64,000 bases of DNA from Cenarchaeum sp. (GTDB taxonomy: Archaea; Thermoproteota; Nitrososphaeria; Nitrososphaerales; Nitrosopumilaceae), in contig OZ243037.1 in the NCBI GenBank assembly GCA_965212015.1, positions 352,001-416,000 of the forward strand, in the 5' to 3' direction. Shown here piece by piece: positions 19,425 to 62,820 of the stretch (within the stretch, counting starts at the first letter, position 1; each line of letters starts with the position of its first letter). A model generated the notes under the pieces. The model was not told where the DNA came from, searched no databases, and saw nothing but the letters and a program-made list of their open reading frames with translations. Position numbers and translations under genes: made by a program.

Positions 19425-19622
19425 ATGGAACAAGGTACCGTAAAATGGTTCAACCGCACCAAAGGCTTTGGTTTTATTGAAAGGGAATCCGGCGATGATT
19501 TGTTTGTACACAAAACAAACGTGGATGGCTTTTTGAGAGAAGGCGACAAAGTCGAGTTTGAAGTCGGTGAAGGCCCAAAAGGTCCCAACGCTGTCAATGT
19601 AAAAAAGACAGAACAGGAATAA
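19425..19622 (+). CDS. cspA: Cold-shock protein (CSD)
   Basis: GTVKWFN, KGFGFI (RNP1), LFVH (RNP2), [10 protein letters not shown]. Confidence 0.95.
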
Positions 19623-39500: not shown

Positions 39501-39536
39501 ATACCGTCCCCCCCCCCGATTGCTTATAAAAGTATA
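39501..39536 (-). promoter_or_regulatory. Promoter of paralog 1: TATA box plus G10 tract
   Basis: Coding strand TATACTTTTATAAGCAATC-G10-ACGGTAT-ATG. Confidence 0.8.
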
Positions 39537-39550
39537 ATCATCGGTTTTTT

Positions 39551-39610
39551 GTAATCGGTTAGGTTCAAGCGGGATATTTGGATCCGCAGGCACCGGACCT
39601 AACCGGTTAC
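39551..39610 (+). mobile_element. 60-bp MITE-like element immediately upstream of the paralog 1 promoter
   Basis: GTAATCGGTTAGGTT...GACCTAACCGGTTAC, with the best-preserved terminal inverted repeats. Confidence 0.72.
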
Positions 39611-40130
39611 GAACCGGTTCTTGACTGCGATCATGCGGGATCAGGGCGAACATGGCGTCAGGACTAGAACTTCCATTCTTCACACAATCCGTTCCACAGG
39701 GGACGGAACACGTCCGGATCCTTTCCAATCTCCTGCGTGATGCGGTTTTTGAGCACGAATGAAAAGTTCTCCAGCGCATCAATGCCGCCGTCATTATACA
39801 GCTCTTCTCCAATCTCGGAGATCCGTGGTGCACGCAAAAATGTCGGCCCTGATGAGCGCGATTCGTATGGGAGTATCTGTCACAGGTTGCACGATGTACC
39901 GTACTTTTCCATGCCATATCTGCGCCAAGCACATAATTGCAGGCGGCGCCGGAAGGCAGACTGGCATTCCCGGGGGCCGTCCCCGTCACGGCCGGGATCC
40001 ATCCCGGCTGCTCAAAAGGTCTTCATTTTGGAGCCGGTCTTGTTCCAGATGGGTTCGTACCAGCTATCATAATCAGGGCATCGTTGCCTGCATTTTACGC
40101 AAGATGCGGATTTGTTCGGCGTATGTTCAA

Positions 40131-42978: not shown

Positions 42979-45900
42979 GTTACCGTCAAAGTGATTTCGT
43001 GTGAGCCGTCACATATCCTATACATGATGGTGGCCGGACCGGCATCACCGGTCGGCGTAAAGGCAAGCAGGCCGGTATCGACATCAAGCGTGGCAGAGTC
43101 AGGAACAACGGGGTCGCCTGTCGCACTCACAAGGAAATACGTCAGGGTGTCCTCGGTATCGGCATCAACAGTATACAGGGAGAGATCCAGCTGTTCTGCG
43201 GTTGTGGCGAGTGGAACGCCCGTGCCGCCTGCGACTACAGGTACCGTGTTGGCGAGCCTCTGTTGGTTGTTTATAGTAACGGTATAGTCGCGCGAGACAT
43301 CATCGGCATCATTGCCATCAAAGCCGTCATCAGATACCGTAACTGTAAACGATACAGAGCCGGTATCGAAGCACCTTGCCGGCGTGTCCGTGTTTCTGAA
43401 ATCAGGCGAGTTGTCCTGTGGAACCACACCGGAGAGATCTCCCGTGTCGGAATCTATGCTCAGCCAGCCCGGATGGTTCGAGAGGCGGTATTCCAGTGTG
43501 TCACCGTCGGGATCGGATGCGGGAATGGCGAGGCCAGAGACGTCGTTGCCCTCCTCAAAGAAGCTAAAGGTGGGAGCCCCAAGGACGGGTTCCGCGTTTA
43601 GCGTGAACTCGTGTACGGTGTTGGCGCCGTCGTTTCTTACAAAGGACATTGTTGTAAAGTCAGTCGAGAACGCAAGGCCCTGTGCCGAATTGGCCGTCCC
43701 CAGCGGCTGCGTGGCCTCTAGGGACAGGGTACTCACGTCATATGCCACACCGAACGTATACGCATAGAGGTCTCTGGCAGTAAGGACATACATTACCGTG
43801 CCGTCATCGTTGACTGCAAGCGACCTCTGGAATGCTTGAATTATCGGGGACGTGACAAAGTCGTTTGCATCACCGGATGATACGTCAAAGGCGACGTCGA
43901 GCGAAAAGCCATATATGCGGCCGCCGCCGCTGGCGCTGTCTATCACGTACAGGTGGGTGCCGTCGCGCGAGAATTCCATTCCCTGCGCGCCGGTAGTGGC
44001 AGCCGAGATGTCCAGGTCGTCGTTCAGATAGGTGGGACTTGAAATGTCAAAGGCGCCCCCCAGATCGTACTCTAGTATTTCATTAGCTGTGGTGCCCAGC
44101 ACGAACATCTTTGTACCGTTAGTCGAGAACTCTAGTGCACGGGGCGAGTTGTCCTGGGCTACCGCATATGCCAGGTCGCTGTTTGCCGCCGTGGATGAGT
44201 TAAAGTTTGTAGAAAGCGCATACCGGCGTATCATGTCGTCGCCGTCATTTGTTATAAACATCGCATCGCCGCTGCCTGAGAAATCAATGTCTGCGGCGCC
44301 GGTGGGCGATCTTGTTATGGAGGAGCTCGAGGCATAGTCGATCATGACATTCAGCGACAGATCAAAGGAACGGTCATTTGACACCGAGTTGGTTCTCGCC
44401 CCGGCCATGACTGCACCTGCCTGAATCGACACCGTTATGGTGGCATCAGTGGCCCCGCGCAGCACGTCAAATGTGTACATATTGCCGGAGACTTGAACAA
44501 GGTTTGACGGCACGTGGGTGCCCATGCTGCTGAGCACCGTAATGTCGTCCAGTCCAAATCCCGTCACTGCAGCGCCAAACAGGACGGTAAACGTCGCCTT
44601 GCCGTTGGCGTCAGCCGGGGTAGTATCGGTGAGTAACACCGAGATTGGCTGGCCGGTGTCAAATATGACGGTATAGACGTTGGAGTCCTCGTTGATAAAG
44701 TCGTCAGTATGAACTATGCTATCTTCGGGAATGCTCACCCTTATTATGCCGTCGACATTGTTGCGCAACACGTCAAAGGTGTACGTATCGCCAGAGCCGG
44801 CAAGAACGGTTGCCATATGGGTGCCGGCAGGCGCGGTGCTGTCCACGATAATGTCGTCTAATTCAAACGTAGCCGGACGTATGGGAGTGCGGAATGTGGC
44901 AGTAAACGTTACGGTATCCATAGTCGTAATGTCATTATCACCCACATCAGCCGTAATCACCACGGGCCGGACGCCAAAGCTAACCTGATGGGCGGTGGAT
45001 GCAGTATTGTCGTTTCCTGCAAAGTCCGTGACCGCACCTTCCGGAATCGATACCGTTATGATGCCTTCGGCATTGTTGCGCTGGACCTCAAAGGTGTAGG
45101 TGCGGTCTGTGTCGGAGGCCACGGGTGCGGATACCGTGTAGGTGCCGGCAGGCGCGGTACTAGACAGGACAATGTCGTCTTGTGTAAACGAGCCTTCCGG
45201 TATGACCTCGCTGAATGTTGCGGTAAATCTTACACGATCAGCAATCGTGCCGGTGTTGTTTGCCACATCGGCGCTAAGTAGCACGGTGGGCGGCTCGTTA
45301 TCCTGCGGGCCAAAAGTGGCGATATAAACATTGGATGCGGTATTGTTGACTTTGTTCAAATCAATAGCCCCGTTTGCCGGCATCTGCACCCTTATTGTAC
45401 CGTCCACACCGCCGCGTTCTACACGAAAGTTAAATGAGGTGCCAGAGGTATCAATCGGAAAGTCCGATACCGTGTGGGTGCCGGCAGGCGCAGTACTGGT
45501 CACAGAAATATCGTCGTCTTCAAGGCTAGATATATGCTCGTTGAATCTGACGTTAAACTGTATGACATCTGCATCGGTGGCACCACGATGAGCCACAGTA
45601 GTACTGGAGATTGTAGGTACGGGCGCGGGGGAAAGGGAAATGGTGTACGTGTTGGTTTGTACCGTGTGGGGGTTTCCAGCCAGATCAAAGACATTGGCAA
45701 CGTTGAGCCGCACAGACACCTGATCGCTTTGACCCTGATTCACTGTTACCGGAAGTGTGTATACGGCACCAGAGCCGGTAAGAGGCTGGAATTGGCCATT
45801 TCCAAGGACGAAAACGTGCGTGATGTCAGCTAATGTAAATCCCGTCACGGGCTCGCTGAACGTAATGGTAATAATGGCCATGTTGGCGCCGGCACCAGCA

Positions 45901-46046
45901 TTGTTTCGTATATTGATCGTCTCACCGTCGATTATCACCGTGCCGGTAATCTCTGCCGTGATCGTGGAGGCCTGGCCATGGGCCAAGACTGGGATCATGG
46001 CCAACAATGGCAATAGGAAAGCTGCCATCAGCATGCTCTTTTGCAT
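40131..46046 (-). CDS. Giant secreted/surface protein, paralog 2 (1971 aa)
   Basis: Signal peptide MQKSMLMAAFLLPLL..AHG|Q; about five Ig-like modules, one propeller block, shared C-terminal ~950 aa. The true start is 46046. Confidence 0.88.
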   Translation of the reverse strand: MQKSMLMAAFLLPLLAMIPVLAHGQASTITAEITGTVIIDGETINIRNNAGAGANMAIITITFSEPVTGFTLADITHVFVLGNGQFQPLTGSGAVYTLPVTVNQGQSDQVSVRLNVANVFDLAGNPHTVQTNTYTISLSPAPVPTISSTTVAHRGATDADVIQFNVRFNEHISSLEDDDISVTSTAPAGTHTVSDFPIDTSGTSFNFRVERGGVDGTIRVQMPANGAIDLNKVNNTASNVYIATFGPQDNEPPTVLLSADVANNTGTIADRVRFTATFSEVIPEGSFTQDDIVLSSTAPAGTYTVSAPVASDTDRTYTFEVQRNNAEGIITVSIPEGAVTDFAGNDNTASTAHQVSFGVRPVVITADVGDNDITTMDTVTFTATFRTPIRPATFELDDIIVDSTAPAGTHMATVLAGSGDTYTFDVLRNNVDGIIRVSIPEDSIVHTDDFINEDSNVYTVIFDTGQPISVLLTDTTPADANGKATFTVLFGAAVTGFGLDDITVLSSMGTHVPSNLVQVSGNMYTFDVLRGATDATITVSIQAGAVMAGARTNSVSNDRSFDLSLNVMIDYASSSSITRSPTGAADIDFSGSGDAMFITNDGDDMIRRYALSTNFNSSTAANSDLAYAVAQDNSPRALEFSTNGTKMFVLGTTANEILEYDLGGAFDISSPTYLNDDLDISAATTGAQGMEFSRDGTHLYVIDSASGGGRIYGFSLDVAFDVSSGDANDFVTSPIIQAFQRSLAVNDDGTVMYVLTARDLYAYTFGVAYDVSTLSLEATQPLGTANSAQGLAFSTDFTTMSFVRNDGANTVHEFTLNAEPVLGAPTFSFFEEGNDVSGLAIPASDPDGDTLEYRLSNHPGWLSIDSDTGDLSGVVPQDNSPDFRNTDTPARCFDTGSVSFTVTVSDDGFDGNDADDVSRDYTVTINNQQRLANTVPVVAGGTGVPLATTAEQLDLSLYTVDADTEDTLTYFLVSATGDPVVPDSATLDVDTGLLAFTPTGDAGPATIMYRICDGSHEITLTVTTSTSAVISGIPDQSINEGQTLNSLPLYILSHTESPIDRGTIPVVTGELGIPLSVINFSRVVDLEKLDLQSIQELVASGADPLQFNDTTGVIFIDGFQIVSQTIDEETDERTRHTISDTFVTTGIQSPPIPITYTFALEDGSMFFGGFDITVNKTDVAANSTLPAEYVVGPRDANTLVFLDQFFEDPDGDDIMYNVTNPDPGIVDLSILSSSNILIIDPVSSGIVVARLCAESMAPGIATAATCEAITVLVLGIPTTESGIFQDSSVNVNHGLLDADVVLNWDDFAIDPTVAFNHIIITANNASATGEIRINQTDRATLVPELASNGTTIHTRIFPSNGSGSISYDPTSDFTSTSDSVTFTAVLHGPAVVQAAGVGTEERIVTEEVIALFHDSLTVNYIIVTVNTDAAPGPLQGDLAFGPRHTSDRFAIPLDDLFVDVDNSRPHLDVTIMGQSNQALTASIVGDRLIVTPPGPNCNCQTLFTFALDDGVNPPQPEQLLFRFESDPAGTVPVGFPQSPVGRFFLPPGFEPFLINLADQVVRGDAAFAENVMISNVQLPEDGNGVTDNSHITATMHNATHYQIAPGTNDLIGSEIITFDVGFVEDPVNANVFTSYRFEFADAPETAQQQVSSGGGDDDTQWKTKPTFGKSYTTGQKIVDCGYSMDNVCRDVTDYHVDYKRNTIETDSLHDFALTAYAQNGLRSFNIGFGLPGIGSPLNAAEAQINVNLIRDYSINSTYMIDSVEYSNENRVIGEDATFEISRVQCLPTDKNELCVRLSIDGVLFRETLYDEPFAINALDSKRRGTTHYMNEGLLVYGDSLNAPPTHELSERHSNQGDAVKLHLTRTDKLADVWTDQLGHQWTKNAFGTWSYVDAPPVDMSSACTDEDNRACDAFAQKLAAYNVQMENLRDSLYGKAYTMPAFDDLEKTVGIHNADGDSREAFLVLHGMQDP

Positions 46047-46084
46047 ATACCACCCCCCCCCCCCCGATTGCTTATAAAAGTATA
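46047..46084 (-). promoter_or_regulatory. Promoter of paralog 2: TATA box plus G13 tract
   Basis: Coding strand TATACTTTTATAAGCAATC-G13-TGGTAT-ATG. Confidence 0.8.
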
Positions 46085-46202
46085 CGGCAATACTGTCTGT
46101 TGCACAATCACGCCTGAATCCATACAGATCATACAACTTTGACCCAGAACCGCAAAATACTATACCGAAGAAGCTTTAGATCAGCGGGGTATTTGTCACG
46201 GT

Positions 46203-46520
46203 GTGACCTCGGCAGACGACAAATACGTGTCGCGCGGCAGGCAGCTGATGCTGCATGATGATTCGGACATGATGCGCGAGCTAAAAAAGGCAAATCGCAA
46301 CAAAATCGGACATCCGTTTGAATATGCCGACTCGCTGTTTGCAGGAATTGCCACCATAAAGGCAATGACAAATCTGTCGTACAGGTGCCTGCAGGGACTG
46401 GCAGGCGAGATGCTGCAATATGCAGGCGAGACGGCACCGGATAACACGGCCATATACAGGAGCTGAAAATCAAGGCCGACGTGTACAGGATGGTGGAACT
46501 GTCGACGGCCAGATAGGAAC
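46203..46520 (+). pseudogene. IS5-family transposase N-terminal remnant
   Basis: YVSRG...ELKKANRNKIGHPFEYADSL...LSYRCLQG...PDNTAIYRS resembles IS5-family N-termini; truncated, with no DDE domain. Confidence 0.7.
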
Positions 46521-46619
46521 ATGGGCCAAAGTGGGATATCAGGCTTGATCGGGTGAGTTGCGCAACAGACTAGTAAGATGCGGCATGCTTTTGGATCAGG
46601 CATGAAAAAACCGGGCGCC

Positions 46620-49600
46620 CTATTCGAGCAGCCACAGCAGGTCGTTATCTGCCAGGAACCTCTCGCGCGAGTCCCCGTCGATATCATATATGGTGACAGT
46701 CTCGTGCAGGTCATCAAAGGCGGGCATTGTGTATGCCTTGTCGTACAGCGAGTCGCGCAGATTTTCCATCTGTACGTTGTAGGCTGCCAGCTTTTGGGCA
46801 AAGGCGTTGCAGACGCGCTTGTCCGGATCGTCGCATATCGGCGAGACGACAATCTTTGGGCCCTCCACGTACGACCACGTGCCAAACGCGTTTTTGGTCC
46901 ACTGGTGTCCCAGCTGGTCGGTCCACACGTCTGCAAGCTTGTCGGTCCGAGTCAGGTGCAGCTTTACTGCGTCGCCCTGGTTTGAGTGCCTCTCGCTGAG
47001 CTCGTGCGTGGGGGGCGCGTTTAGCGAGTCGCCAAACACCAGCAGCCCCTCGTTCATATAGTGGGTGGTGCCGCGCCTCTTTGAGTCCAGCGCGTTTATT
47101 GCAAACGGCTCGTCGTACAGCGTCTCGCGGAACAGTACGCCATCTATGCTCAGCCGCACGCACAGCTCGTTGTTGTCTGCGGGCAGGCACTGTACGCGCG
47201 ATATCTCAAAGGTGGCGTCCTCGCCTATCACGCGATTCTCGTTTGAATATTCCACAGAGTCTATCCTGTACGTGGAGTTTATGGAATAGTCACGTATCAG
47301 GTTTACGTTAATCTGCGCCTCTGCAGCATTCAGGGGCGAGCCTACTCCGGGCAGGCCAAAGCCGATGTTAAACGAGCGCAGGCCGTTTTGTGCGTACGCC
47401 TTTAGCGCAAAGTCGTGAAGCGAGTCAGTCTCTATGGTATTGCGTTTGTAATCGACGTGATAGTCAGTTACGTCGCGGCAGACATTGTCCATGGAATAGC
47501 CGCAGTCCACTATTTTTTGGCCAGTCGTGTACGACTTGCCAAACGTCGGCTTTGTCTTCCACTGCGTGTCGTCATCGCCGCCTCCCGAAGAGGCCTGCGG
47601 CGGGGGCGAGTCAGTGGAAAACGCCACCCTGTAATTTTCAAACAGTGTAACGGAGGCATCATCTTGACGCACCACATCAAGCATCATCGTCTCGGACTCA
47701 AAATTAGAGGTGCCGGTCACCCTATGATGGGTGGCATTGAACTCACTGACGCCGATAGAGCTGTCATCTGGCAGCCGGAGGTTGGTAATCGAGATGGCCT
47801 CCACAAAGGTGGCGTTTCCTCCTGCGATCAGATCCTCAAAGTCTATTACAAACGGCTCAAAGTCCCGGTCCAAAAAGAACCGGCTTATCGGGGACTGTGG
47901 AAAGTCCACCGGTACCGTTCCAGAGTCATCCGTCTCGAACCGGAACAGTATCGAGGTCTCCAAGGGTGTGCTTGTCCCGTCATCGACTATAAAGTTAAAG
48001 TTGGTCTGGCCGTTATGGTTCGGGCCCGGGGGCCTTATAACGACAAAGTTGCCCAGTATGCTGCCTGAAAATTCAGCGTCAGGGTCGTCTCCTACCACGG
48101 CAGTCAACCCCGTGTTGCTCTGGCCTGCTATGGTGACATCAAGGGGGCCCGGCCTGCTGTTGTCGGGATCCTCAAACAGGTCGTGCACTGCGAGGGCAAA
48201 GTAGTCAGAGGCGTGTCGCGGCCCAAAAGGCATGCCGTTTGACACCAGCTTTACGGGCGACAAATCATCGGTGACAAACTCGTAATTGACAGTCAGCGTA
48301 TCGTGGAGTCGCGGAACAATCTGACTTGTAACGGTACTGTTATCCCTCGGGGCCGTCCTCGTGTCCTGAACGGCCGGATTATACAGAACGGCATTAAACG
48401 TTATAGTGTCTACGGGCGATGCCGCATCGGATGACGGATTGTACGATATGGTACCGGAATTGTTGCTCAGAGTCAGAGTCTTGTCGATTATGGCCCTGTC
48501 AGGGAGGCGCAGATCAAGGACATGGATCGTACCCGTACTGTTGATTCGGATACTCCCCGTTGCGGCCGCATCATTGGCAGTTATGATAATGTGGTCAAAG
48601 AGTACCGTCGGGTCAATAATGGTATTGTTGCCGTTCAGGACGATGGTCGCTGCCGTATCGGTATGGCGTACGGTGATTGAGGATTCCTGGAATATCCTGC
48701 TCTGTATCGTATCTGCGCCCCGCACAAAAACTGCAATGCCATCGCAGGTGGAGCCGTTTGGCACGGATCCCCCGCCGCCATCGCTTTCGGCGCACAGCGT
48801 GAGGAGGGTCAGACCCGGCGATTCAGGGTTTATGGTCAGCACGTTTGCATCAAGGGTTATCACCACGGATTCGGAAAGTGAGTCACTTGTCATGTTATAC
48901 GTGATGGTATCACCCTCGGGATCCGTAAAATGATCGGCCAGATCTATCACCATGTCCGGATCCGAGGGATTAAACACATATTGTGCCGGCAGGGACGATA
49001 TGGGGGCAGCATCTGTCCTGTTTACAACTAAATCAAAGATGGCCTGATGCGAGGTTCCATCCTCCAGGACAAACGTATAGTCTATCCGGACGGGCGGCGA
49101 TCGTTCAAGGTTCGCATCCACGAAATCGACAGGTATCGTGTGTATTATTTCAAATGGGTCTATCTGCTCATCAGGCGGCACCCCATCTGCCTCTTGCTGA
49201 AAGAGCTCAAGGAACCGCGCGTCTATCTGGTCTGCGTTATCCATGAAATTTAGTGCTTCGGTGCTTGATATCTGCCACGCCCTTTGATCACCGGCAGTCA
49301 GTGATCCGCCGCCCGGCGCCGTACCGTTAAGGTCCGGATCTCCCGGCATCAACATATCAAACTCCTCTGTGGTCAGAGATCCGTTCGATGCAAATATCGG
49401 CACTAAATCCCCTGCTATTGTTATTTCCGTGACGTTAAAGAGCGGAGACTCGGTGTGGGATATGATATACAAATCCAGGGAATCCAGCGTCTGCCCCTCG
49501 TTTATCGACTGGTCTGGTATTATCTCAAGCGCTGGAGGGGCCGACTGTGTAGACACCATCAAAGTCTCAAGGATAGAGCCGTCACACACGTCATAACTAA

Positions 49601-52802: not shown

Positions 52803-52839
52803 ATGTCACCCCAACCCCCCGATTACTTATAAAAGTATA
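52803..52839 (-). promoter_or_regulatory. Promoter of paralog 3: TATA box plus interrupted G6-TT-G4 tract
   Basis: Coding strand TATACTTTTATAAGTAATC-GGGGGGTTGGGG-TGACAT-ATG. Confidence 0.78.
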
Positions 52840-53283
52840 AAGCAGTAGGGCGTTGTCCAGTAATTTCACTTTCTGACACTCCACACGGCGCATTATGAGG
52901 CATCAGAGCTAACCCGATTCCGGTTCGAAGGACATACTGGCAGCAGATCCGTGCAAATGGGCCTGCCAATCCGGCATATCACGAATGCCACAGGCCAGAG
53001 ACGTGCTATCTTGAAATCTGTTCGCCTTTTACCGGACATCGTACATCTCTTCTGACTTGCCGTCAATAACCGTTGCCCCTTGGGAGGGGGCATCTTGCGC
53101 TTAAATGCCCGGGCCGGCGCCGAGTATTAGCGAAACTCGCAACAATTCTGCATGACTTGTGTACAACCACACGTCTCAAAGTTACAAAACACGGCAAAAT
53201 ACGATCCGTAACACACAAAAAATATACAATTTCACAAAATCATGCGCAGAAATACAGCGCTTCGTGCTCCCTGCGTTATGTGA

Positions 53284-54463: not shown

Positions 54464-54537
54464 ATGCGGCGATCATGCCTGATCTAAACCTGTTGGTTGA
54501 AAATAATTGTGGGCATTGTCAATACGCATGAGCCCTA

Positions 54538-57385
54538 CTAGGGATCCTGCATGCCGTGAAGAACCAAAAAGGCCTCGCGTGAGTCGCCGTCGGCATTATG
54601 GATGCTGACTGTCGTTTCCAGGTCGTCAAAGGCCGGAACGGTATAGATGCCGCCGTAATAGAAATCACGCAGCTCCTCCATCTGAATAATGTGCGCGTCG
54701 CGCTTTTGGGCAAAGGCATCACACGCACGATTGTCCTCGTCGGTACACGCACTCGACATGTCGACTGGCGGCGCATCCACGTACGACCACGTGCCAAACG
54801 CGTTCTTTGTCCACTGGTGTCCCAGCTGGTCGGTCCACACGTCTGCAAGCTTGTCGGTCCGAGTCAGGTGCAGCTTTACTGCGTCGCCCTGGTTTGAGTG
54901 CCTCTCGCTGAGCTCGTGCGTGGGGGGCGCGTTTAGCGAGTCACCATACACCAGCAGCCCCTCGTTCATATAGTGGGTGGTGCCGCGCCTCTTTGAATCC
55001 AGCGCGTTTATTGCAAACGGCTCGTCGTACAGCGTCTCGCGGAACAGTACGCCATCTATGCTCAGCCGCACGCACAGCTCGTTTTTGTCTGTAGGCAGGC
55101 ACTGTACGCGCGATATCTCAAAGGTGGCGTCCTCGCCTATCACGCGATTCTCGTTTGAATATTCCACAGAGTCTATCATGTACGTGGAGTTTATGGAATA
55201 GTCACGTATCAGGTTTACGTTAATCTGCGCCTCTGCAGCATTCAGGGGCGAGCCTATTCCGGGCAGGCCAAAGCCGATGTTAAACGAGCGCAGGCCGTTT
55301 TGTGCGTACGCCGTTAGCGTAAAGTCGTGAAGCGAGTCAGTCTCTATGGTATTGCGTTTGTAATCGACGTGATAGTCAGTTACGTCGCGGCAGACATTGT
55401 CCATGGAATAGCCGCAGTCCACTATTTTTTGGCCAGTCGTGTACGACTTGCCAAACGTCGGCTTTGTCTTCCACTGCGTGTCGTCATCGCCGCCTCCCGA
55501 AGAGACCTGCTGCTGGGCAGTCTCAGGCGCATCGGCAAACTCGAACCTGTATGACGTAAACACATTCGCATTAACAGGGTCTTCTACAAACCCTACATCA
55601 AACGTTATTATTTCAGATCCAATAAGGTCATTCGTGCCGGGGGCTATTTGGTAATGGGTGGCATTGTGCATGGTTGCAGTGATGTGAGAGTTATCCGTGA
55701 CGCCATTACCGTCCTCTGGCAGCTGAACGTTACTGATCATAACATTCTCCGCAAAGGCGGCATCCCCCCTGACGACCTGATCTGCAAGGTTTATGAGGAA
55801 CGGCTCAAATCCGGGTGGCAAAAAGAACCTGCCTACCGGGGATTGTGGAAATCCCACCGGTACGGTTCCGGCAGGATCCGACTCGAATCGGAATAACAGT
55901 TGTTCGGGTTGGGGCGGATTTACCCCGTCATCCAGGGCAAAGGTAAACAGGGTCTGGCAGTTACAGTTGGGACCGGGGGGCGTTACGATGAGACGATCGC
56001 CCACTATACTGGCGGTTAACGCCTGGTTGCTCTGGCCCATTATGGTAACATCAAGGTGGGGCCTGCTGTTGTCAACATCCACAAACAGGTCATCCAGTGG
56101 GATGGCAAACCGGTCAGAGGTGTGGCGCGGTCCAAAAGCCAGGTCCCCTTGCAGTAGCCCGGGTGCCGCGTCAGTGTTAACGGTGACAATTATGTAATTG
56201 ACCGTCAGGCTGTCATGGAACAGCGCAATGACCTCTTCTGTAACAATCCTCTCTTCTGTGCCAACCCCTGCGGCCTGGACTACTGCCGGACCGTGCAGGA
56301 CTGCAGTGAACGTTACAGAATCCGAGGTGGATGTAAAGTCGGATGTCGGATCATACGATATGGACCCAGAGCCGTTGGATGGGAATATTCTAGTGTGGAT
56401 TGTGGTCCCGTTCGAGGCCAGCTCGGGAACAAGGGTGGCGCGATCGGTCTGGTTGATTCGAATCTCCCCCGTTGCAGACGCATTGTTGGCAGTTATTATA
56501 ATGTGGTTAAACGCCACCGTCGGGTCTATGGCAAAGTCGTTCCAGTTCAGGACGACATCCGCATCCAAAAGGCCATGGTTTACATTAACTGAGGAGTCCT
56601 GGAATATGCCGGACTCGGTCGTCGGTATGCCCAGCACTAAAACCGTAATAGCCTCACAGGTGGCAGCTGTTGCTATGCCCGGTGCCATGCTTTCGGCGCA
56701 CAGCCTAGCTACCACTATGCCTGGCGATACCGGATCTATGATCAATATGTTTGATGATGACAAAATGGACAAATCTACGATTCCGGGATCCGGGTTGGTC
56801 ACATTATACATAATGTCATCGCCATCCGGATCCTCAAAAAACTGGTCCAAGAATACAAGCGTGTTCGCATCCCGGGGACCAACTACATATTCTGCCGGCA
56901 GGGTGGAATTGGCGGCCACATCGGTCTTGTTTACAGTTATATCAAATCCGCCAAAAAACATGCTTCCGTCCTCTAAGGCAAACGTATAGGTTATCGGGAT
57001 GGGCGGCGACTGTATGCCGGTGGTCACAAATGTGTCGGATATCGTGTGTCTTGTTCTTTCGTCCGTTTCTTCGTCTATCGTCTGGCTGACTATCTGAAAT
57101 CCATCTATGAATATTATACCTGTGGTGTCGTTAAACTGCAGAGGGTCGGCGCCACTCGCTACAAGTTCTTGTATCGACTGTAGATCCAGTTTTTCCAGGT
57201 CTACCACCCTAGAAAAATTAATTACACTTAGCGGTATTCCCAGCTCGCCGGTTACCACCGGAATAGTGTCCCTGTCGATGGGGGATTCGGTATGGGAGAG
57301 GATATACAATGGCAGGGAATTCAGCGTCTGTCCCTCGTTTATCGACTGGTCAGTGATGCCACTGATCACAGCGGTAGTACTAGTC
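54538..57385. repeat. ~2.85-kb near-identical direct repeat, copy B (3' part of paralog 4)
   Basis: Matches 40131-42978. Confidence 0.9.
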
Positions 57386-60300
57386 ATCACTTGCAAAGAC
57401 GAGATGACAGAGCCGTCACACACGATATAATCGATGGTGGCCGTACCGGTGTTGCCAGTCGACATAAAGGTCGCAAGGCCCGTATCGGAATCAATCGCAA
57501 GGGAGCCCGGAGTGATGGTGTTGCCTGCCAGGCCCGTAAAGGAATACGTCAGGATGTCCCCGGCATCGGTATCACTGGTATACAGGGAGAGATCCAGCTG
57601 TGTGGAAGTTGAGACAAGCGGAATGTTCATGTTGTTCACGTTCACGGGAGCGTTGTTGGGCGACCTCTCATTGCCGAATACACCAACGGTATAGTCGCGC
57701 GAGACATCATCGGTATCATCGCCATCAAAGCCGTCATCAGATACCGTAACTGTAAACGATACAGAGCCGGTAGCGGCGCACCTTGCTGGTGTGTCCTCGG
57801 CCCTATAGAGGCCCGTGTTGTCCTGCGGGACAATACCGGAGAGCTGTCCCGTGTCGGAATCTATGCTCAGCCAGTCCGGATGGTTCGAGAGGCTGTATTC
57901 CAGTGTGTCACCGTCGAGATCGGATCCCGGAATCTGATTGGAGAGATTCTCGTCCTCTGTAAATCCAAAGTTCAGGTCCCCAAGGACGGGTTCCGCGTTT
58001 AGCGTGAATTCGTGTACGGTGTTGCTGGGGTCGTTTCTTACAAAGGACATTGTTGTAAAGTCAGTCGAGAACGCAAGGCCCTGTGCCGAATTGGCCGTCC
58101 CCAGCGGCTGCGTGGCCTCTAGGGACAGGGTACTCACGTCATATGCCACACCGAACGTATACGCATAGAGGTCTCTGGCAGTAAGGACGTACATTACCGT
58201 GCCGTCGTCGTTGACTGCAAGCGACCTCTGGAATGCTTGAATTATCGGGGACGTGACAAAGTCGTTTGCATCACCGGATGATACGTCAAAGGCGACGTCG
58301 AGCGAAAAGCCATATATGCGGCCGCCGCCGCTGGCGCTGTCTATCACGTACAGGTGGGTGCCGTCGCGCGAGAATTCCATTCCCTGCGCGCCGGTAGTGG
58401 CAGCCGAGATGTCCAGGTCGTCGTTCAGATAGGTGGGATTTGAAATGTCAAAGGCGCCGGACAGATCGTACTCTAGTATTTCATTAGCTGTGGTGCCCAG
58501 CACGAACATCTTTTGGCCGTTAGTCGAGAACTCTAGTGCACGGGGCGAGGTGTCCTGGGTTACCGAATATATCGGCGGACCTATGTTGCTCGTCGCCGTG
58601 GATGAGTTAAAGTTTGTAGAAAGCGCATACCGGTGTATCTGGTCGCCGCCGTCATTTATTATAAATATCGCATCGCCGCTGCCTGAGAAATCAATGTCTG
58701 CGGAGAAGGCGAACGCTGTTGTTATGGAGGAGCTCGAGGTATAGTCGAGCATGACATTCAGCGACAGATCAATTGAATAGGCATTCGATGCCTCGTTGCT
58801 TCCCACCGCGTTTGCCGGTATTGACACCGTTATGGTGGCATCGTCTGCCCCGCGCAGCACGTCAAAGGCGTACTCGGCACCGGAGCCGGTAAGGTTTGAC
58901 GGCACGTGGGTGCCGGCAGACAGGGCGGTGCCGTTAGGTGCAACGCTAGATATTGTAATGTCACTCAGCTCAAATCCGGTCACCGAACGGCCAAATTCGA
59001 CGTTAAACGATGCAATGCCGTCAGCAGCAGTCGCCCCCGGCGGATTGCTGTCGATTTCCGTCGTAAACGAGCTAGTGGCGACGGAATACCTAAAGATGTC
59101 GACTGTTGTGCTTTCTACTGCAAACAGGTGCAGGCCGTTATCAGCAACTGCCATGCTGCGGGGACCCACGATGGGAAGCGTTTGGAAGATGCCGCTGTAC
59201 GATATGGAGGAGGAGTCCACGGCATACTCGTGCAACACACTGTCAGCTCCTACGACAAGCATGGCCGTACTGTTGTAAAATGCCACGTCCTGCGGCGTGG
59301 CCGGATTACTGCCCAAATTAAGGGATCTGTCGTATGTCACATCAGAGATTGAAAAGGGGATTGCCAGCGTGTGCTCGTGGACCCGGCTGTTGGCAGGGGT
59401 CAAGCCCTCCACTATAAACAGCTTTGTGCCATCAGATGAAATGGTGAATCCGTTGGGGCCGCCCGCCAGATTGGTCGGCGTGAGCGTGTTTACCTGCGTG
59501 CGCGGATCCAGGACATATGGCGCATCCAGGGCAAATTCATAGAGCTCGCCGGAAAATTCATTCATTAGAATCATGGTGCGCCCGTCGTTTGAGAACTCTA
59601 GATCCGTTGCGGAAAGACTCCGCGGTACCGAAGACTCAAAGTCACGTGTGATGTCGCTGTTGGTGTCAGATGTCGTGTTTGCAAAGTCAAACGGCGTGAT
59701 TGTCGTGTACCGGGTAATGTCGCTGTCGCCACTTTCCAGGACGAACATGTGCAGCCCGTCGTTTGAGAATTGTATGCCGGCAGGCTGGTCACCAAACAGC
59801 CTATCAAAGGTGTCATCAGCTACGAGCTCGCCTGCGACAAAGGGCGTTATGGAATTCACCACGCGGAGTATTATTGGCTCGATGTCAGAGCCGCCGGTAT
59901 TTGTGGCGGTGACGTTAAAGGAGAACGTGCCTGCGGTATCCGGCGTCCAGCTGAATGCGCCGCCGGGCGTTATCGCGGCATCTTCCAGCGCACCGCCGGG
60001 CGCAAAGTCCGCCGGCACACCATCAAGTGTGAATCCAGCCGCCGGCCTGCCCGCTACCTGCCCGAACTGCAGGCTGATCCCCTCGTTTATCACGTACTGT
60101 GGCTGTATTATCGGCAGTACGATTATGGGCGGAACGAGTTTTCGCGTGAATTCGATTATGGTGTTGGTGGCACCATCTCCTACAACGTACATTCTTTCAC
60201 GGTCAGGCGAGAACACAAATCCCTGTGCAGGTTGGGTTATGCCCAGCGGCTGCGTGGCCTCTAGGGACAGGGTACTCACGTCATATGCCACACCGAACGT

Positions 60301-62643
60301 ATACGCATAGAGGTCGCTGACACCAAGGACGTACATTACCGTGCCGTCATCGTTGACTGCAAGCGACCTCTGATTGCGTTGAAGTGCAGGGGACGTGACA
60401 AGGTCGTTTGCATCACCGGATGACAAGTCAAAGCCAACATCGAGCGGAAAGCCATATATGCGGCCGCTGTCGTCGGTGGAGTCTATCACGTACATGTGGG
60501 TGCCGTCACGCGAGAATGCCAGTCCTTGCACGCCGGAAGCGGCAGTGACGGGCAAGGTGTCTACTGTACCGGGATTTGAAATATCAAAATCGCCTCCCAG
60601 ATTGTACTCGCGTACATCTCTATCGTCGGCGTCTAGCACGAACATTTTTTGGCCGTTGGCCGAAAACTCTACTTCTCTAGGTAAGTTGTCCAGGATAACA
60701 GTATACGACTGATCGGCGTCTGAATCAGCCGAGAGTGGGTTAAAGTTCGTACCAAGCGCATACCGGTTTATCGTATTGGTGACGTCATGATTTAGTATAA
60801 ATATTCTATTGCCGGTATTTGTGAAATCTATGTCTTGGGCGTCCCTAACCGTTCTTAGTAAACCGTTACTCCGGGTATAGTCGATCGAGAGAAACAGCTC
60901 CAGATCGACGGAAAGAGTGTTCGATGCCTCGTTGCCTCCCGTCACGTTTGCCGGTATTGACACCGTTATGGTGGCATCGTTGGCCCCGCGCAGCACGTCA
61001 AAGGCGTACTCGGCACCGGAGCCCGTAAGGTTTGACGGCACATGGGTGCCCATATCACTGTCCACTATAATGCCATCCAGTCCAAATCCCGTCACTATAT
61101 CGCTAAATGTGGCGTTAAACGAAGCCTTGCCGTTGGCGTCAGCCGGGGTAGTATCGGTAATTTGCACCGTGGCCGACGTGCCAAAAGTGGTGACATAGTT
61201 ATTCGATGCCTCATTGTCGTTGGTTTGAGAATCGACGGCCACGCCCGCAGGAACGGATACCGTTATGGTGCCTTCGACGCCGTTGCGCTGCACCTCAAAG
61301 GAGAATCTGGTACCTTCAGATGGGTTCTCCAGCATAAAGCTTGATGCCATGTGGGTGCCGTCAGGCGCAGTGCTAGACACCATAATATCATCCTCCGTAA
61401 ATCCCGACACGCTCTCGCTGAACGTGGCGTTAAACCGTATTGTATTCCTACTGCTGATGCCGTTATTTGGCACGTCGGTGCTGGAGATTGTAACTGTTGG
61501 CAGGTCGGCATTCAGCACAGTAAAAGTGGCGGTAAAGGGAATTGGCGCCGAATTGGCAGTACTGTCCGATATGCTTGTCGCCATGCCTGCGGGAATCGAT
61601 ACGGTCACATCGCCAATGGTGGATCCCACATTGACGTCAAACGTGTACAGGGCGGCGTCGTCGGGGTCTGCCACAAATTCAGATACCATGGGACTGCCGC
61701 CGTTTACGGTACCAGTCAAGACAATGCCGTTTTCATCAAATCCGCTCACATCCTCGTTGAACCTGACGGTAAACCTTATGTTTGGCTCGGCCGTGGAGCT
61801 GCCGTTTGTAATCCCGGCATTGGCGGTGATTACCGCCGTAGTGGGCAGGGTAAAGGCGGCAGGAAGCACGTATTGTCTGATAGCATCGATGCCAGTAGAA
61901 TCAAGCAAATACATCATGGTACCATCAGGCGAGAAATCCATTCCGCGATAACTTGCCGTGTCAAGGGGGACAAATGTGTCATCCGGTGAATTCCAGAGGG
62001 TGCCGTTTATGTGATAGGCAGGATTTAGATTAAACTGGCGGATCTCCGTAGCGATCATGACGAACAGTCTTGTGCCGTCAGTGGAGATTGACATGCCTTG
62101 AACCATCCCGGCTGGATTAAAACTGCCGTGGGGACGGTTATTGGGAGTTGACTGGGTGCTTATATCATAGGGCGTCCCGAGTTGGTATGATCGGACATTT
62201 CCTTCTCCGATAAATACCCAGTTGCCGTCATTTGATAACGTGCCTCCAAACCCTCGGGGGAGGTGGCCGCCAAGGGAATTTCCAAGCGAATAATCCGAAT
62301 CATCGAGTTCAAATGCGGCTATGTGGCCCCTCCCAGTATTTGGAAAATATATGCGGTCATTTGTAGATGAGAGTATTACATCCTGTATCATGCGGGCATT
62401 GGCGTCGGGCACCGCGACTGCGCTGTCAAGCGATGCAGTCGTAATATCAAATGGGGTACCGAGTGTGTGTACAAAGTACTGGCTGCTTCGCACAATAAGC
62501 ATCGTAGACCCGTCATCTGAGATGGCCACCCCCGTTCCTCCACCTATATCTGGGATGGGAAAGTTGGACTGCGCATGGGCCGAAATAGGGATTATAACCA
62601 ACAATGGCAATAGTAATGCTGCGACTAGCAGGGTCTTTTGCAT
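54538..62643 (-). CDS. Giant secreted/surface protein, paralog 4 (2701 aa)
   Basis: Signal peptide MQKTLLVAALLLPLL..SAHA|Q; four propeller blocks, Ig-like modules, shared C-terminal region. Confidence 0.88.
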   Translation of the reverse strand: MQKTLLVAALLLPLLVIIPISAHAQSNFPIPDIGGGTGVAISDDGSTMLIVRSSQYFVHTLGTPFDITTASLDSAVAVPDANARMIQDVILSSTNDRIYFPNTGRGHIAAFELDDSDYSLGNSLGGHLPRGFGGTLSNDGNWVFIGEGNVRSYQLGTPYDISTQSTPNNRPHGSFNPAGMVQGMSISTDGTRLFVMIATEIRQFNLNPAYHINGTLWNSPDDTFVPLDTASYRGMDFSPDGTMMYLLDSTGIDAIRQYVLPAAFTLPTTAVITANAGITNGSSTAEPNIRFTVRFNEDVSGFDENGIVLTGTVNGGSPMVSEFVADPDDAALYTFDVNVGSTIGDVTVSIPAGMATSISDSTANSAPIPFTATFTVLNADLPTVTISSTDVPNNGISSRNTIRFNATFSESVSGFTEDDIMVSSTAPDGTHMASSFMLENPSEGTRFSFEVQRNGVEGTITVSVPAGVAVDSQTNDNEASNNYVTTFGTSATVQITDTTPADANGKASFNATFSDIVTGFGLDGIIVDSDMGTHVPSNLTGSGAEYAFDVLRGANDATITVSIPANVTGGNEASNTLSVDLELFLSIDYTRSNGLLRTVRDAQDIDFTNTGNRIFILNHDVTNTINRYALGTNFNPLSADSDADQSYTVILDNLPREVEFSANGQKMFVLDADDRDVREYNLGGDFDISNPGTVDTLPVTAASGVQGLAFSRDGTHMYVIDSTDDSGRIYGFPLDVGFDLSSGDANDLVTSPALQRNQRSLAVNDDGTVMYVLGVSDLYAYTFGVAYDVSTLSLEATQPLGITQPAQGFVFSPDRERMYVVGDGATNTIIEFTRKLVPPIIVLPIIQPQYVINEGISLQFGQVAGRPAAGFTLDGVPADFAPGGALEDAAITPGGAFSWTPDTAGTFSFNVTATNTGGSDIEPIILRVVNSITPFVAGELVADDTFDRLFGDQPAGIQFSNDGLHMFVLESGDSDITRYTTITPFDFANTTSDTNSDITRDFESSVPRSLSATDLEFSNDGRTMILMNEFSGELYEFALDAPYVLDPRTQVNTLTPTNLAGGPNGFTISSDGTKLFIVEGLTPANSRVHEHTLAIPFSISDVTYDRSLNLGSNPATPQDVAFYNSTAMLVVGADSVLHEYAVDSSSISYSGIFQTLPIVGPRSMAVADNGLHLFAVESTTVDIFRYSVATSSFTTEIDSNPPGATAADGIASFNVEFGRSVTGFELSDITISSVAPNGTALSAGTHVPSNLTGSGAEYAFDVLRGADDATITVSIPANAVGSNEASNAYSIDLSLNVMLDYTSSSSITTAFAFSADIDFSGSGDAIFIINDGGDQIHRYALSTNFNSSTATSNIGPPIYSVTQDTSPRALEFSTNGQKMFVLGTTANEILEYDLSGAFDISNPTYLNDDLDISAATTGAQGMEFSRDGTHLYVIDSASGGGRIYGFSLDVAFDVSSGDANDFVTSPIIQAFQRSLAVNDDGTVMYVLTARDLYAYTFGVAYDVSTLSLEATQPLGTANSAQGLAFSTDFTTMSFVRNDPSNTVHEFTLNAEPVLGDLNFGFTEDENLSNQIPGSDLDGDTLEYSLSNHPDWLSIDSDTGQLSGIVPQDNTGLYRAEDTPARCAATGSVSFTVTVSDDGFDGDDTDDVSRDYTVGVFGNERSPNNAPVNVNNMNIPLVSTSTQLDLSLYTSDTDAGDILTYSFTGLAGNTITPGSLAIDSDTGLATFMSTGNTGTATIDYIVCDGSVISSLQVMTSTTAVISGITDQSINEGQTLNSLPLYILSHTESPIDRDTIPVVTGELGIPLSVINFSRVVDLEKLDLQSIQELVASGADPLQFNDTTGIIFIDGFQIVSQTIDEETDERTRHTISDTFVTTGIQSPPIPITYTFALEDGSMFFGGFDITVNKTDVAANSTLPAEYVVGPRDANTLVFLDQFFEDPDGDDIMYNVTNPDPGIVDLSILSSSNILIIDPVSPGIVVARLCAESMAPGIATAATCEAITVLVLGIPTTESGIFQDSSVNVNHGLLDADVVLNWNDFAIDPTVAFNHIIITANNASATGEIRINQTDRATLVPELASNGTTIHTRIFPSNGSGSISYDPTSDFTSTSDSVTFTAVLHGPAVVQAAGVGTEERIVTEEVIALFHDSLTVNYIIVTVNTDAAPGLLQGDLAFGPRHTSDRFAIPLDDLFVDVDNSRPHLDVTIMGQSNQALTASIVGDRLIVTPPGPNCNCQTLFTFALDDGVNPPQPEQLLFRFESDPAGTVPVGFPQSPVGRFFLPPGFEPFLINLADQVVRGDAAFAENVMISNVQLPEDGNGVTDNSHITATMHNATHYQIAPGTNDLIGSEIITFDVGFVEDPVNANVFTSYRFEFADAPETAQQQVSSGGGDDDTQWKTKPTFGKSYTTGQKIVDCGYSMDNVCRDVTDYHVDYKRNTIETDSLHDFTLTAYAQNGLRSFNIGFGLPGIGSPLNAAEAQINVNLIRDYSINSTYMIDSVEYSNENRVIGEDATFEISRVQCLPTDKNELCVRLSIDGVLFRETLYDEPFAINALDSKRRGTTHYMNEGLLVYGDSLNAPPTHELSERHSNQGDAVKLHLTRTDKLADVWTDQLGHQWTKNAFGTWSYVDAPPVDMSSACTDEDNRACDAFAQKRDAHIIQMEELRDFYYGGIYTVPAFDDLETTVSIHNADGDSREAFLVLHGMQDP

Positions 62644-62680
62644 ATACCGTCCCCCCCCCCCGATTGCTTATAAAAGTATG
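62644..62680 (-). promoter_or_regulatory. Promoter of paralog 4: TATA box plus G11 tract
   Basis: Coding strand CATACTTTTATAAGCAATC-G11-ACGGTAT-ATG. Confidence 0.8.
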
Positions 62681-62820
62681 CGGTCAAGACAGGTGATTGA
62701 TCAGGTCGTACACGAGGGCAGGTTTTTCATCATACGGCCGATCTAAGTAATTTTGAGGCCAGACCATACCCGACATCTTGGAATTCTGGATTTTACGCGA
62801 ATCCGATCATGGCAACATAC

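Follow-up and report, generated by a model that had tools for sequence, protein, structure and literature searches.

Poly-G tracts between TATA box and start codon as candidate contingency loci of giant surface-protein genes in a Cenarchaeum genome

Could the length of a homopolymer in an archaeal promoter govern whether a surface protein is made? The question is raised by a 64,000-nucleotide stretch of a Cenarchaeum sp. genome (contig OZ243037.1, positions 352,001 to 416,000; hereafter the window), in which four giant genes for secreted proteins carry a G tract between a TATA box and the start codon (Table 1). A previous sequence-only reading of this DNA had described the four sites; all are on the minus strand, and their coordinates were reproduced. 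The motif TTTTATAAGYAATCGGGG matches the window four times, compared with 0.01 matches expected from 100 shuffles. The window contains exactly three G/C runs of at least 10 nt (C10, C11, and C13 on the plus strand) and no runs of 8–9 nt, which bears out the earlier remark that no comparable run occurs elsewhere in it. The interrupted tract of giant gene 3 should undergo less slippage than an equally long pure run. The SGL-type propeller match in the product of this gene falls slightly below the Pfam cut-off (24.0 versus 26.3 bits). The claim that every giant-gene promoter contains such a tract holds for the four giant genes in the window and fails genome-wide: the tract is absent at the giant secreted genes with first ATGs at genome positions 519845 (4,712 amino acids) and 553446 (3,441 amino acids). 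These two are among several tract-less giant secreted proteins encoded in the genome.

Table 1. Positions of TATA boxes, tracts, and giant genes in the window
Feature	Position	Strand	Remarks
Giant gene 1, TATA box region TTTTATAAG	39531-39523	-	typical leaderless distance from ATG
Giant gene 1, G10 tract	39517-39508	-	followed by ACGGTAT and ATG 39500-39498
Giant gene 1, 3,861 aa	27915..39500	-	signal peptide MQKTLLFAALLLPLLVLIPVSAYAQ
Giant gene 1, domains			SGL/Lactonase beta-propeller and Big_12 Ig-like
Giant gene 2, TATA box region TTTTATAAG	46079-46071	-	motif match
Giant gene 2, G13 tract	46065-46053	-	followed by TGGTAT and ATG 46046-46044
Giant gene 2, 1,971 aa	40131..46046	-	signal peptide; Big_12 and Lactonase domains
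Giant gene 3, TATA box region TTTTATAAG	52834-52826	-	motif match
Giant gene 3, interrupted tract G6TTG4	52820-52809	-	followed by TGACAT and ATG 52802-52800
Giant gene 3, 2,060 aa	46620..52802	-	signal peptide
Giant gene 4, TATA box region TTTTATAAG	62675-62667	-	motif match
Giant gene 4, G11 tract	62661-62651	-	followed by ACGGTAT and ATG 62643-62641
Giant gene 4, 2,701 aa	54538..62643	-	signal peptide; Lactonase, SGL, and He_PIG Ig domains

Counted from the final A of TTTATAA to the A of ATG, the intervening sequence measures 23, 25, 24, and 24 nt in giant genes 1–4, respectively; the distances of 22, 24, 23, and 23 nt given previously form an equivalent series that differs only in how the nucleotides were counted. 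Their similarity to the spacing in amoA and amoC was confirmed by TATA boxes found before both ATGs. In amoA (Pfam Archaeal_AmoA), TTTATAT and TATATA lie 24 and 23 nt before the ATG, respectively, and in amoC (Pfam AmoC), TACTTTATAT is followed by 23 nt and the ATG at 3234. Across the genome, with the giant-gene family left out, TATA boxes pile up 20–27 nt before first ATGs with a mode of 23 nt, which supports the premise of leaderless promoters. A published gene-start analysis places 11 of 11 Thaumarchaeota in a leaderless-dominated class (PMC6028130). A weak Shine-Dalgarno-like peak is also present 3–10 nt before starts genome-wide.

A motif search of the whole genome, which the sequence-only reading had proposed, extended the pattern outside the window to ten paralogous giant genes (1,476–3,861 amino acids) with one common cassette. 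In this cassette, TACTTTTATAAG is followed by 5 nt, the G tract, 6–7 nt, the ATG, and the signal peptide. The tract thus occupies the interval between TTTTATAAG and the ATG, where its length would be expected to alter promoter geometry. The TATA-to-ATG spacing in the ten copies ranges from 21 to 25 nt. Because all of these values are normal for the organism (20–27 nt), no copy is obviously OFF, and given this wide natural range one-base changes in spacing may be tolerated. The tracts comprise one G10, four G11, one G12, one G13, and three interrupted forms (G6TTG4, G4TG3, and G6ATG3AGGT), so that 7 of the 10 copies carry pure runs above the length of ~9 nt at which slippage becomes possible. 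Among the paralogs, pairs that are nearly identical over the 200 nt upstream differ in tract length (G11 versus G12 and G10 versus G11). Sequence conservation across the ten copies starts only ~5 nt before the TATA box, and no shared upstream promoter is therefore evident. Median identity of the cassette (−45 to +78) is 0.83, compared with 0.60 for the upstream region and 0.66 for the gene body. The family is mosaic in that the upstream partners of copies are not the same as their downstream partners, and the C-termini are conserved as well. The ten tracts do not represent independent events because all descend from one ancestral cassette.

G/C runs of 7, 8, and 9 nt number 84, 5, and 0 in the genome, respectively, and ten runs are 10–13 nt long. 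Markov models of order 1–6 predict 1.0–3.3 runs of at least 10 nt, whereas runs of exactly 8–9 nt are depleted (5 seen versus roughly 17–47 expected); the expectations are analytic estimates, and the figure for 8–9 nt was obtained from differences of cumulative values. The genome also has 13 A/T runs of 10–11 nt. All ten G/C runs of at least 10 nt are located at the 5′ ends of genes whose secreted products are 1,000 amino acids or longer. When runs of at least 8 nt are considered, 12 of 15 lie at the 5′ ends of genes for secreted proteins, which range from roughly 900 to 5,168 amino acids. The long runs occur in four sequence-unrelated contexts, two of which are inside signal-peptide coding sequence. 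Outside the giant family, the tract-bearing genes encode a 5,168-amino-acid giant, the members of a second family (family 2), and an S8 subtilase with surface Ig domains. The tract-bearing proteins are of the surface type, with signal peptides and beta-propeller/Ig-like giants, FG-GAP/HYR, or Big_12/SWM repeats. MutS was not found in this 99.7%-complete genome; NucS is present.

In two gene sets the tract falls within the signal-peptide coding sequence, and its length sets the reading frame. The ATG of family 2 lies 25 nt before the tract; the gene with C10 (228427) is in frame, both C8 copies (104353 and 222537) are one base short and hence out of frame (2 of 3 copies), and the nearest ATG of the subtilase gene is out of frame at C11, all as read from one assembly, in which a homopolymer length off by one would change the frame. 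A protein search for N-terminal variants returned only this genome's three family-2 proteins as close matches; the next match is 37% identical.

The association between tracts and surface genes is partly replicated in two other genomes. In G001, which belongs to the same genus, 6 of 17 tracts are found at the 5′ ends of open reading frames of more than 1,300 codons, and another 6 of 17 are without a clear link to a surface gene. The tracts at giant reading frames have unrelated flanks, one of them (L078) is poly-C on the coding strand, and equivalent tracts in G001 can lie 1–28 nt from the ATG. In G015, from another genus, 5 of 15 tracts are at the 5′ ends of open reading frames of more than 1,300 codons, most tracts are without a clear surface-gene link, and the paralogs L104 and L105 carry G19 and G17, respectively, within the same flanks. 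The association is not replicated in G009, a member of another genus with three runs of 8 nt, none of 9 nt, and seven of 10–11 nt, none of the seven at the 5′ end of a giant secreted gene. Because G009 has the same gap in its spectrum without the association, the bimodal distribution of run lengths may reflect slippage dynamics and not selection. Raw G10 counts from G002–G004 run to hundreds and were left out, as these genomes are ~70% GC and many of the tracts lie in a repeated element. Cassette DNA was absent from all relatives searched (0 of 60).

A search of Logan contigs and public contigs yielded no direct evidence of tract-length variation within or between populations. Four of the ten sequencing runs listed contain part of the stretch, all as Logan contigs (X1–X4) and none of them from RNA. 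Contigs on window positions 45900–62800 stop at or in cassettes: X1 begins at 46056, X2 ends at 52812, X4 at 52819, and X3 at 62661. These breaks are explained by k-mers common to the ten copies and therefore carry no information on length heterogeneity. X4 shows 1-nt deletions at 52814/52815 that perhaps stem from paralogs aligned at 85% likeness. An apparent joint of 52804 to 62656 with 9 extra letters proved to be the tenth paralog. When its gap was allowed to vary, the cassette pattern occurred in 0 stretches of metagenome contigs, and its two matches in genome contigs were chance AT-rich sequences without a G tract. No other strains were found in public contigs, and a protein-profile scan of metagenome contigs revealed no relative.

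With the presence, position, and excess of the tracts, their link to giant secreted proteins, the frame states, and the leaderless geometry all observed directly, we put the chances slightly better than even that the tracts constitute contingency loci for phase or level variation of surface proteins. This idea is strengthened and partly supported by the ten copies, the location of 10 of 10 long runs, the frame-setting tracts, and the partial replication in two genomes. Genes for surface proteins would retain slippage-prone simple-sequence repeats at their 5′ ends. In the ten-member family, the G tract would act as a spacer, with the TATA box on one side and on the other the start codon of an mRNA that has no leader or almost none. 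Transcription by archaeal RNA polymerase begins at a pyrimidine-purine step whose distance from the TATA box is roughly constant, and the conserved (T/C)ATATG supplies two such steps. Gain or loss of G residues would therefore displace the start site with respect to the AUG. If the tract became shorter, transcription would start inside or past the AUG, and the product could not be translated as a leaderless mRNA; if it became longer, a short leader would be added. Tract length may also tune promoter strength because 5–6 G:C pairs fall in the melting region of ~12 bp. Each paralog could alter its expression independently, and in the two gene sets with intragenic tracts the mechanism would be frameshift. 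High-frequency length variation and an effect of length on expression are inferred.

One alternative, unlikely but deserving of serious weight, is that the tracts are mutable and switch nothing: they would be either a fixed promoter feature, a G:C-rich block that sets strength or binds a factor, or a neutral by-product of slippage by which any run longer than ~9 nt expands, with length differences between paralogs reflecting slow drift without effect on expression. This agrees with the normal 21–25-nt spacing held by all ten copies and with the same spectrum gap in G009, which has no surface-gene link. It also agrees with the pairing of 3′ spacers and tracts (7-nt spacers with G10–G11 and 6-nt spacers with G11–G13), as if the total were held constant. 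However, neutral expansion leaves unexplained why, across four unrelated contexts, 10 of 10 long runs sit at the 5′ ends of genes for large secreted proteins, and why the same gene class bears tracts in G001 and G015 with different flanks and on either strand. A fixed G-specific element is incompatible with the poly-C tract of L078, and frame-breaking intragenic tracts would be costly unless reversible. We consider it improbable that the cassette serves mainly for recombination, as a homology block that permits exchange of gene bodies by gene conversion and antigenic variation by shuffling, with the G tract as a passenger or recombination hot spot. The elevated identity of the cassette, the mosaic partners, and the conserved C-termini would be expected of such a block, but the tracts at the 5,168-amino-acid giant, family 2, and the subtilase would not, nor is there a reason for the tract to be a long homopolymer. 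Recombination is in any case compatible with the contingency reading and need not replace it.

Homopolymers are the commonest site of error in long-read assemblies, and the frame states hinge on single bases. Nevertheless, the likelihood that mis-called lengths lie behind the copy differences and out-of-frame states is close to negligible: one-base errors cannot make ten runs of 10–13 nt at one class of site or produce interrupted variants, contigs of independent runs extend into the tracts (X1 from 46056 and X3 to 62661), and the same pattern appears in G001 and G015. A role for the transcribed tract in an mRNA leader, as a Shine-Dalgarno-like site or small-RNA target, is very improbable. The 6–7 nt between the 3′ end of the tract and the ATG are typical of Shine-Dalgarno sites, the weak peak described above is present genome-wide, and a precedent exists in Helicobacter pylori, where RepG targets a G-repeat of variable length in tlpB (PMC8295292). 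Such a role is at odds with the invariant TTTTATAAG at the standard leaderless distance and with the lack of a visible shared upstream promoter, as well as with the equivalent tracts of G001, which may be poly-C or lie 1–28 nt from the ATG.

The vlp genes of Mycoplasma hyorhinis encode a family of variable lipoproteins, and their promoters contain a poly-A tract between −35 and −10 for which switching has been demonstrated. The archaeal giant genes resemble vlp as a surface multigene family with a conserved 5′ block (promoter, homopolymer, and signal peptide) and divergent bodies; in both, the tract is inside the promoter, so that each vlp gene can switch alone and each giant gene could do so. 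Instead of poly-A between bacterial −35 and −10 boxes, the giant genes have poly-G in the interval from an archaeal TATA box to the AUG, in front of an mRNA that is probably leaderless, and the length of this tract would set the start site and the presence of the start codon. Promoter poly-G or poly-C tracts are also known from porA and opc of Neisseria meningitidis and from fim2 and fim3 of Bordetella, where one-base changes grade or switch transcription. These share with the archaeal tracts a G/C homopolymer of ~9–15 nt in the promoter spacer of a surface gene, but they belong to bacterial sigma-70 promoters, in which the distance that separates two contacts of polymerase or activator matters. 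The geometry of archaeal TBP, TFB, and RNA polymerase, together with leaderless translation, leads to a different predicted consequence. Intragenic poly-G contingency genes, with demonstrated variability, are described for Campylobacter and Helicobacter (PMC539331 and PMC3315296). The bimodal G/C spectrum, the tracts in 5′ coding sequence of surface-related genes, and the out-of-frame state of some copies are features in common, and family 2 and the subtilase gene fit this intragenic pattern, with frame states that here come from a single assembly.

In Orsi et al. 2010 (PMC2831843), which included 18 archaeal genomes, homopolymeric tracts at 5′ ends of genes are proposed as devices for reversible inactivation. 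That study deals with coding sequences only and reports the effect for poly-A/T of up to ~8 nt; in it, poly-G/C tracts are not closer to 5′ ends, and archaeal promoters are not treated. According to a phage preprint, contingency loci “have been described in archaea” (its references 13–15), and a 2025 review (PMC11868660) lists the archaeal distribution of phase variation as future work. Among the papers listed, a literature search by title and abstract found no description of promoter homopolymer tracts in archaea, in keeping with the earlier statement that none was known for ammonia-oxidising archaea.

Phase variation through slippage counts as a hallmark of host-adapted bacteria, and by analogy the candidate switches described here look like the on/off switches of surface proteins in such bacteria. 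It is tempting to speculate, at somewhat less than even chances, that a multi-gene “phasome” operates in some ammonia-oxidising archaea, with surface genes toggled independently by poly-G/C slippage in two modes. One would be frameshift within signal-peptide coding sequence; the other, without a bacterial counterpart, would employ a leaderless-promoter spacer that decides whether the transcript keeps its own start codon. Membership in this genome would extend to ~11 surface-protein genes with a pure tract of at least 8 nt, and as many as four copies whose tracts are interrupted or flank-fixed are additional candidates. If true, the phasome would give Archaea their first demonstrated simple-sequence contingency system. 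The promoter tracts would provide a natural spacer-length series for the coupling of TATA-to-start distance with leaderless translation, and homopolymer “errors” or “frameshifted pseudogenes” at such archaeal sites should be neither automatically corrected nor discarded. If the tracts switch, ammonia oxidisers would carry surface heterogeneity that is hidden from consensus genomes, and the same kind of bet-hedging would extend to the surface of archaeal cells, with viruses, grazers, or a host as the presumed opponents.

All four giant genes of the window share one arrangement on the minus strand, in which TACTTTTATAAG(C/T)AATC is followed by a G tract, one of the sequences ACGGTAT, TGGTAT or TGACAT, and then ATGCAAAAGA. 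The shared 18-nt motif matches four times in the window, compared with 0.01 matches expected from shuffles. Sites and tract lengths are as the sequence-only reading had them, and its remark that the window has no comparable G/C run of 10 nt or more elsewhere is borne out: exactly three such runs exist, and none of 8–9 nt. In giant genes 3 and 4 the cassette ATG is the earliest start codon of its open frame, which places the tract upstream of the coding sequence. The products of giant genes 1–4 start with a signal peptide of typical form, MQK(S/T)(M/L)L..LLPLL..AQ, and contain SGL/Lactonase-type β-propellers together with Ig-like domains (Big_12, He_PIG). The window also carries a D12-class N6-adenine DNA methyltransferase gene directly 3′ of amoA.

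Tracts and associated features. Copies of family 1 are named by the genome position of their ATG; spacing counts the nucleotides that separate the final A of TTTATAA from the A of ATG.
Feature	Position	Strand	Tract	Spacing (nt)	ORF or context
Copy 92329		+	G11	23
Copy 391500 (giant gene 1)	window 39517–39508	−	G10	23	3,861 aa
Copy 398046 (giant gene 2)	window 46065–46053	−	G13	25	1,971 aa
Copy 404802 (giant gene 3)	window 52820–52809	−	G6TTG4	24	2,060 aa
Copy 414643 (giant gene 4)	window 62661–62651	−	G11	24	2,701 aa
Copy 422510			G4TG3	21
Copy 541554			G6ATG3AGGT	23
Copy 820322			G11	24
Copy 1006358			G11	23
Copy 1017609			G12	24
L067, family 2	G000:C1 104353–104360		C8		inside signal-peptide coding sequence
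L068, family 2	G000:C1 222537–222544		C8		inside signal-peptide coding sequence
L069, family 2	G000:C1 228427–228436		C10		inside signal-peptide coding sequence
L070	genome 535665–535676		G12		5,168-aa secreted protein
L089	genome 1142722–1142732	− (gene)	C11		1,761-aa S8 subtilase
L090, NucS_C match	genome 1566235–1566435
D12-class methyltransferase gene	window 5930–6808	+

The genome is one contig of 1.764 Mb with 51% G+C. The genome-wide search proposed earlier recovered ten copies of the cassette (TATA box, G tract, ATG and signal peptide), which head ORFs of 1,476–3,861 amino acids designated family 1. Alignment from −200 to +200 shows that conservation across all ten copies sets in roughly 5 nt before the TATA box and continues through the signal peptide. 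Median identity over 45 pairs is 0.83 from −45 to +78, as against 0.60 upstream and 0.66 in the next 600 nt. Near-identical upstream regions carry unlike tracts in copies 92329 and 1017609 (G11 versus G12) and in copies 391500 and 1006358 (G10 versus G11); downstream, these four pair with other copies and not with their upstream partners. Over their last 70 amino acids, the ten gene products can be sorted into a small number of conserved types (one contains ...ACTDEDNRACDAFAQK...). Judged from its sequences, family 1 is a mosaic, and its conserved ends, variable middle and differing upstream and downstream similarity partners suggest gene conversion. Copies with a 7-nt spacer 3′ of the tract carry G10–G11 and those with a 6-nt spacer G11–G13, as if total spacing were held near 23–25 nt. 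Four copies have a AACCTAAC(C/T)G(A/G)TTAC motif and AACCGGTT-type palindromes 20–40 nt ahead of the TATA box, the AACCTAAC motif being found at window 39540–39620 and upstream of copies 820322, 1006358 and 541554. Copies 414643 and 422510 share another upstream motif, GACCTGATC(A/G)ATCACC. The AACCTAAC- and GACCTGATC-type motifs may be regulator sites.

Across the whole genome, G/C runs of 5 to 9 nt number 1,817, 451, 84, 5 and 0, and those of 10 to 13 nt number 2, 5, 2 and 1. Markov models of order 1–6 predict 1.0–3.3 runs of at least 10 nt, where 10 are observed, and roughly 17–47 runs of exactly 8–9 nt (the difference of cumulative expectations), where 5 are observed. This deficit and excess indicate that short-to-medium runs are purged while a separate long class persists. 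All ten runs of at least 10 nt lie at the 5′ ends of large secreted-protein genes, seven of them in family-1 cassettes and one each at L070, L069 and L089. The tract of L070 is also of the promoter type: it immediately follows TCTAAAATA, 15 nt separate it from the ATG of a Big_12/SWM-repeat protein, and its flanks are unrelated to the ten-copy cassette. Two of the five 8-nt runs fall in FG-GAP/HYR paralogs, and three (at 19454, 873682 and 1185656) have no such link. Thus, 12 of 15 runs of at least 8 nt occupy 5′ ends of large secreted-protein genes, in four sequence-unrelated contexts. Open frames of 800 codons or more number only 70 genome-wide, and 12 of them have such a run at the 5′ end (10 by open-frame scan, plus copies 391500 and 1006358, in both of which an earlier in-frame ATG exists). 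The earlier proposal that every giant-gene promoter bears a tract holds for the four giants of the window but not genome-wide, since the scan of frames of at least 800 codons found secreted proteins of 4,712 and 3,441 amino acids without one.

Other tracts are positioned to set the reading frame. Family 2 consists of three FG-GAP/HYR secreted-protein paralogs of 892–1,021 amino acids with poly-C tracts. An ATG positioned 25 nt ahead of the tract shares the frame of the long ORF in the C10 copy, which encodes 1,021 amino acids. The two C8 copies lack one base, which puts this ATG out of frame. The C11 of L089 lies inside the 5′ end of a subtilase gene with surface Ig-like domains. The ATG closest to this tract, 26 nt upstream, does not match the reading frame at the C11 length; C10 or C13 would restore the frame. 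As read from one assembly, on whose single-base accuracy the reading hangs, the frame states of family 2 and the subtilase are the classic picture of translational phase variation.

Genome-wide promoter geometry supports the earlier premise that giant-gene mRNAs are leaderless, with spacing similar to that of amoA and amoC. Upstream of the first ATGs of open frames with 100 codons or more (3,118 frames, from which the ten family-1 members were then removed), TTTAWAW occurs 8, 7, 13, 18, 12, 8, 7 and 6 times at 20–27 nt, a sharp peak above the background of 1.4 per position. With a looser TATA motif the profile keeps this shape and has its mode at 23. Both amoA and amoC in the window fit this peak, and the amoC box, TACTTTATAT, resembles that of the cassette. 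One published study places 11 of 11 Thaumarchaeota in the prevalent-leaderless class, with a promoter box about 22–26 nt from starts (PMC6028130). According to a review, archaeal promoters melt about 12 bp upstream of where transcription starts, the melting region tends to be AT-rich, and the initiator is T(A/G) (PMC7289017). If the A of the ATG were the first transcribed base, the tract would span about −17 to −8 and would serve both as start-positioning spacer and as a portion of the DNA that melts. The conserved (T/C)ATATG would offer purine starts at the A of ATG and two nucleotides upstream.

The cassette DNA was found in none of 60 relatives searched, including four of the same genus. 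At least one G10 occurs in 35 of 81 genomes and 15 of 27 genera across the taxonomic family (counts that include the present genome and one unpublished genome, G101), strongly clustered by genus. G001, from the same genus, is a single contig of 2.05 Mb with 17 tracts of 10–17 nt; in overlapping-match counts, it has 222, 10 and 1 runs of 7, 8 and 9 nt. Six of the 17 (L075, L076, L078, L082, L087, L088) are at 5′ ends of ORFs longer than 1,300 codons. Signal peptides are present in four of the five with a visible N-terminus (all but L076), and Pfam scans of four (L075, L078, L082, L087) place them in the β-propeller class of family 1. L078 reads TATTTAATATA, C13, 13 nt, ATG. At L084, GATTATAAG, 9 nt, G11 and 1 nt precede the ATG of a 225-aa signal-peptide protein, in a paralog of which L085 is intragenic. 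Further tracts lie 12 nt before a UDP-GlcNAc 2-epimerase gene (L079), at codons 2–4 of a DUF4147/MOFRL protein (L077) and 44 nt before a DUF373 protein (L083); 6 of 17 lack a clear link to surface genes. In the regions examined of G015 (another genus, 1.64 Mb), 5 of 15 tracts of 10–26 nt coincide with, or shortly precede, the 5′ ends of ORFs of 800 codons or more, including paralogs L104 and L105 with identical flanks and G19 versus G17. Among L100, L101 and L108 of this genome, one tract precedes a DNA-methyltransferase-like gene (DPPF motif) by 49 nt; a C15 midway along a 1,142-codon ORF keeps the frame and encodes a proline run. Genomes G002–G004 (same genus, about 70% G+C) contain hundreds of G10 matches and tract-bearing repeats; among L011, L016 and L021 of G002 and other loci, at least three copies are of one repeated element, ...GGGCGCCGGGA-G10-AGGTAAGTGTGTAC. 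Of the loci in these three genomes, only L037, which reads TTTAATAA, 6 nt, G11, 5 nt, ATG, enters the interpretation.

G009, of a further genus (about 57–60% G+C in the regions examined), is a counter-example. It has seven tracts of 10–11 nt. No giant secreted gene carries any of them at its 5′ end, and the TATA-tract-ATG layout is seen at one, in front of a 142-aa protein. Because G009 shows the gap in run length (three runs of 8 nt, none of 9) without the location pattern, the gap may be a product of slippage dynamics, in which runs past a threshold expand, and not of selection. Such an origin would itself imply that the tracts are unstable. Canonical MutS-type mismatch repair appears absent, since the 99.7%-complete genome yielded no MutS_V domain; a NucS-type protein is present, with one NucS_C match that exceeds the cut-off at 36 bits.

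It is location that carries the functional case, and on it we lean toward reading the tracts as contingency loci, slippage-prone repeats whose length would switch or grade expression. This reading is favored because all long runs lie at 5′ ends of large secreted proteins, across four unrelated contexts and in both a promoter and a coding mode, and because the same gene class bears tracts in other species, with different flanks and on either strand. All ten family-1 copies, however, fall within the organism's normal TATA-to-ATG spacings, which speaks against simple ON/OFF switching; a graded effect, or an assembly mirroring the dominant expressed state, would fit. Assembled contigs of four DNA runs break at the cassettes, which is expected of a repeat present in ten copies, and public contigs yielded no strain-level relatives.

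In agreement with the sequence-only reading, our literature search turned up no account of homopolymer switches, whether in promoters or in coding sequence, from ammonia-oxidizing or other archaea. Orsi et al. 2010 (PMC2831843) treat coding-region tracts in 18 archaeal genomes and report poly-G/C without 5′ bias, a 2025 review (PMC11868660) leaves archaeal loci to future work, and a phage preprint states, citing others, that contingency loci have been described in archaea. Homopolymer switches of this kind are already known from bacteria. The archaeal TATA-to-AUG leaderless setting would be a new form of that mechanism.
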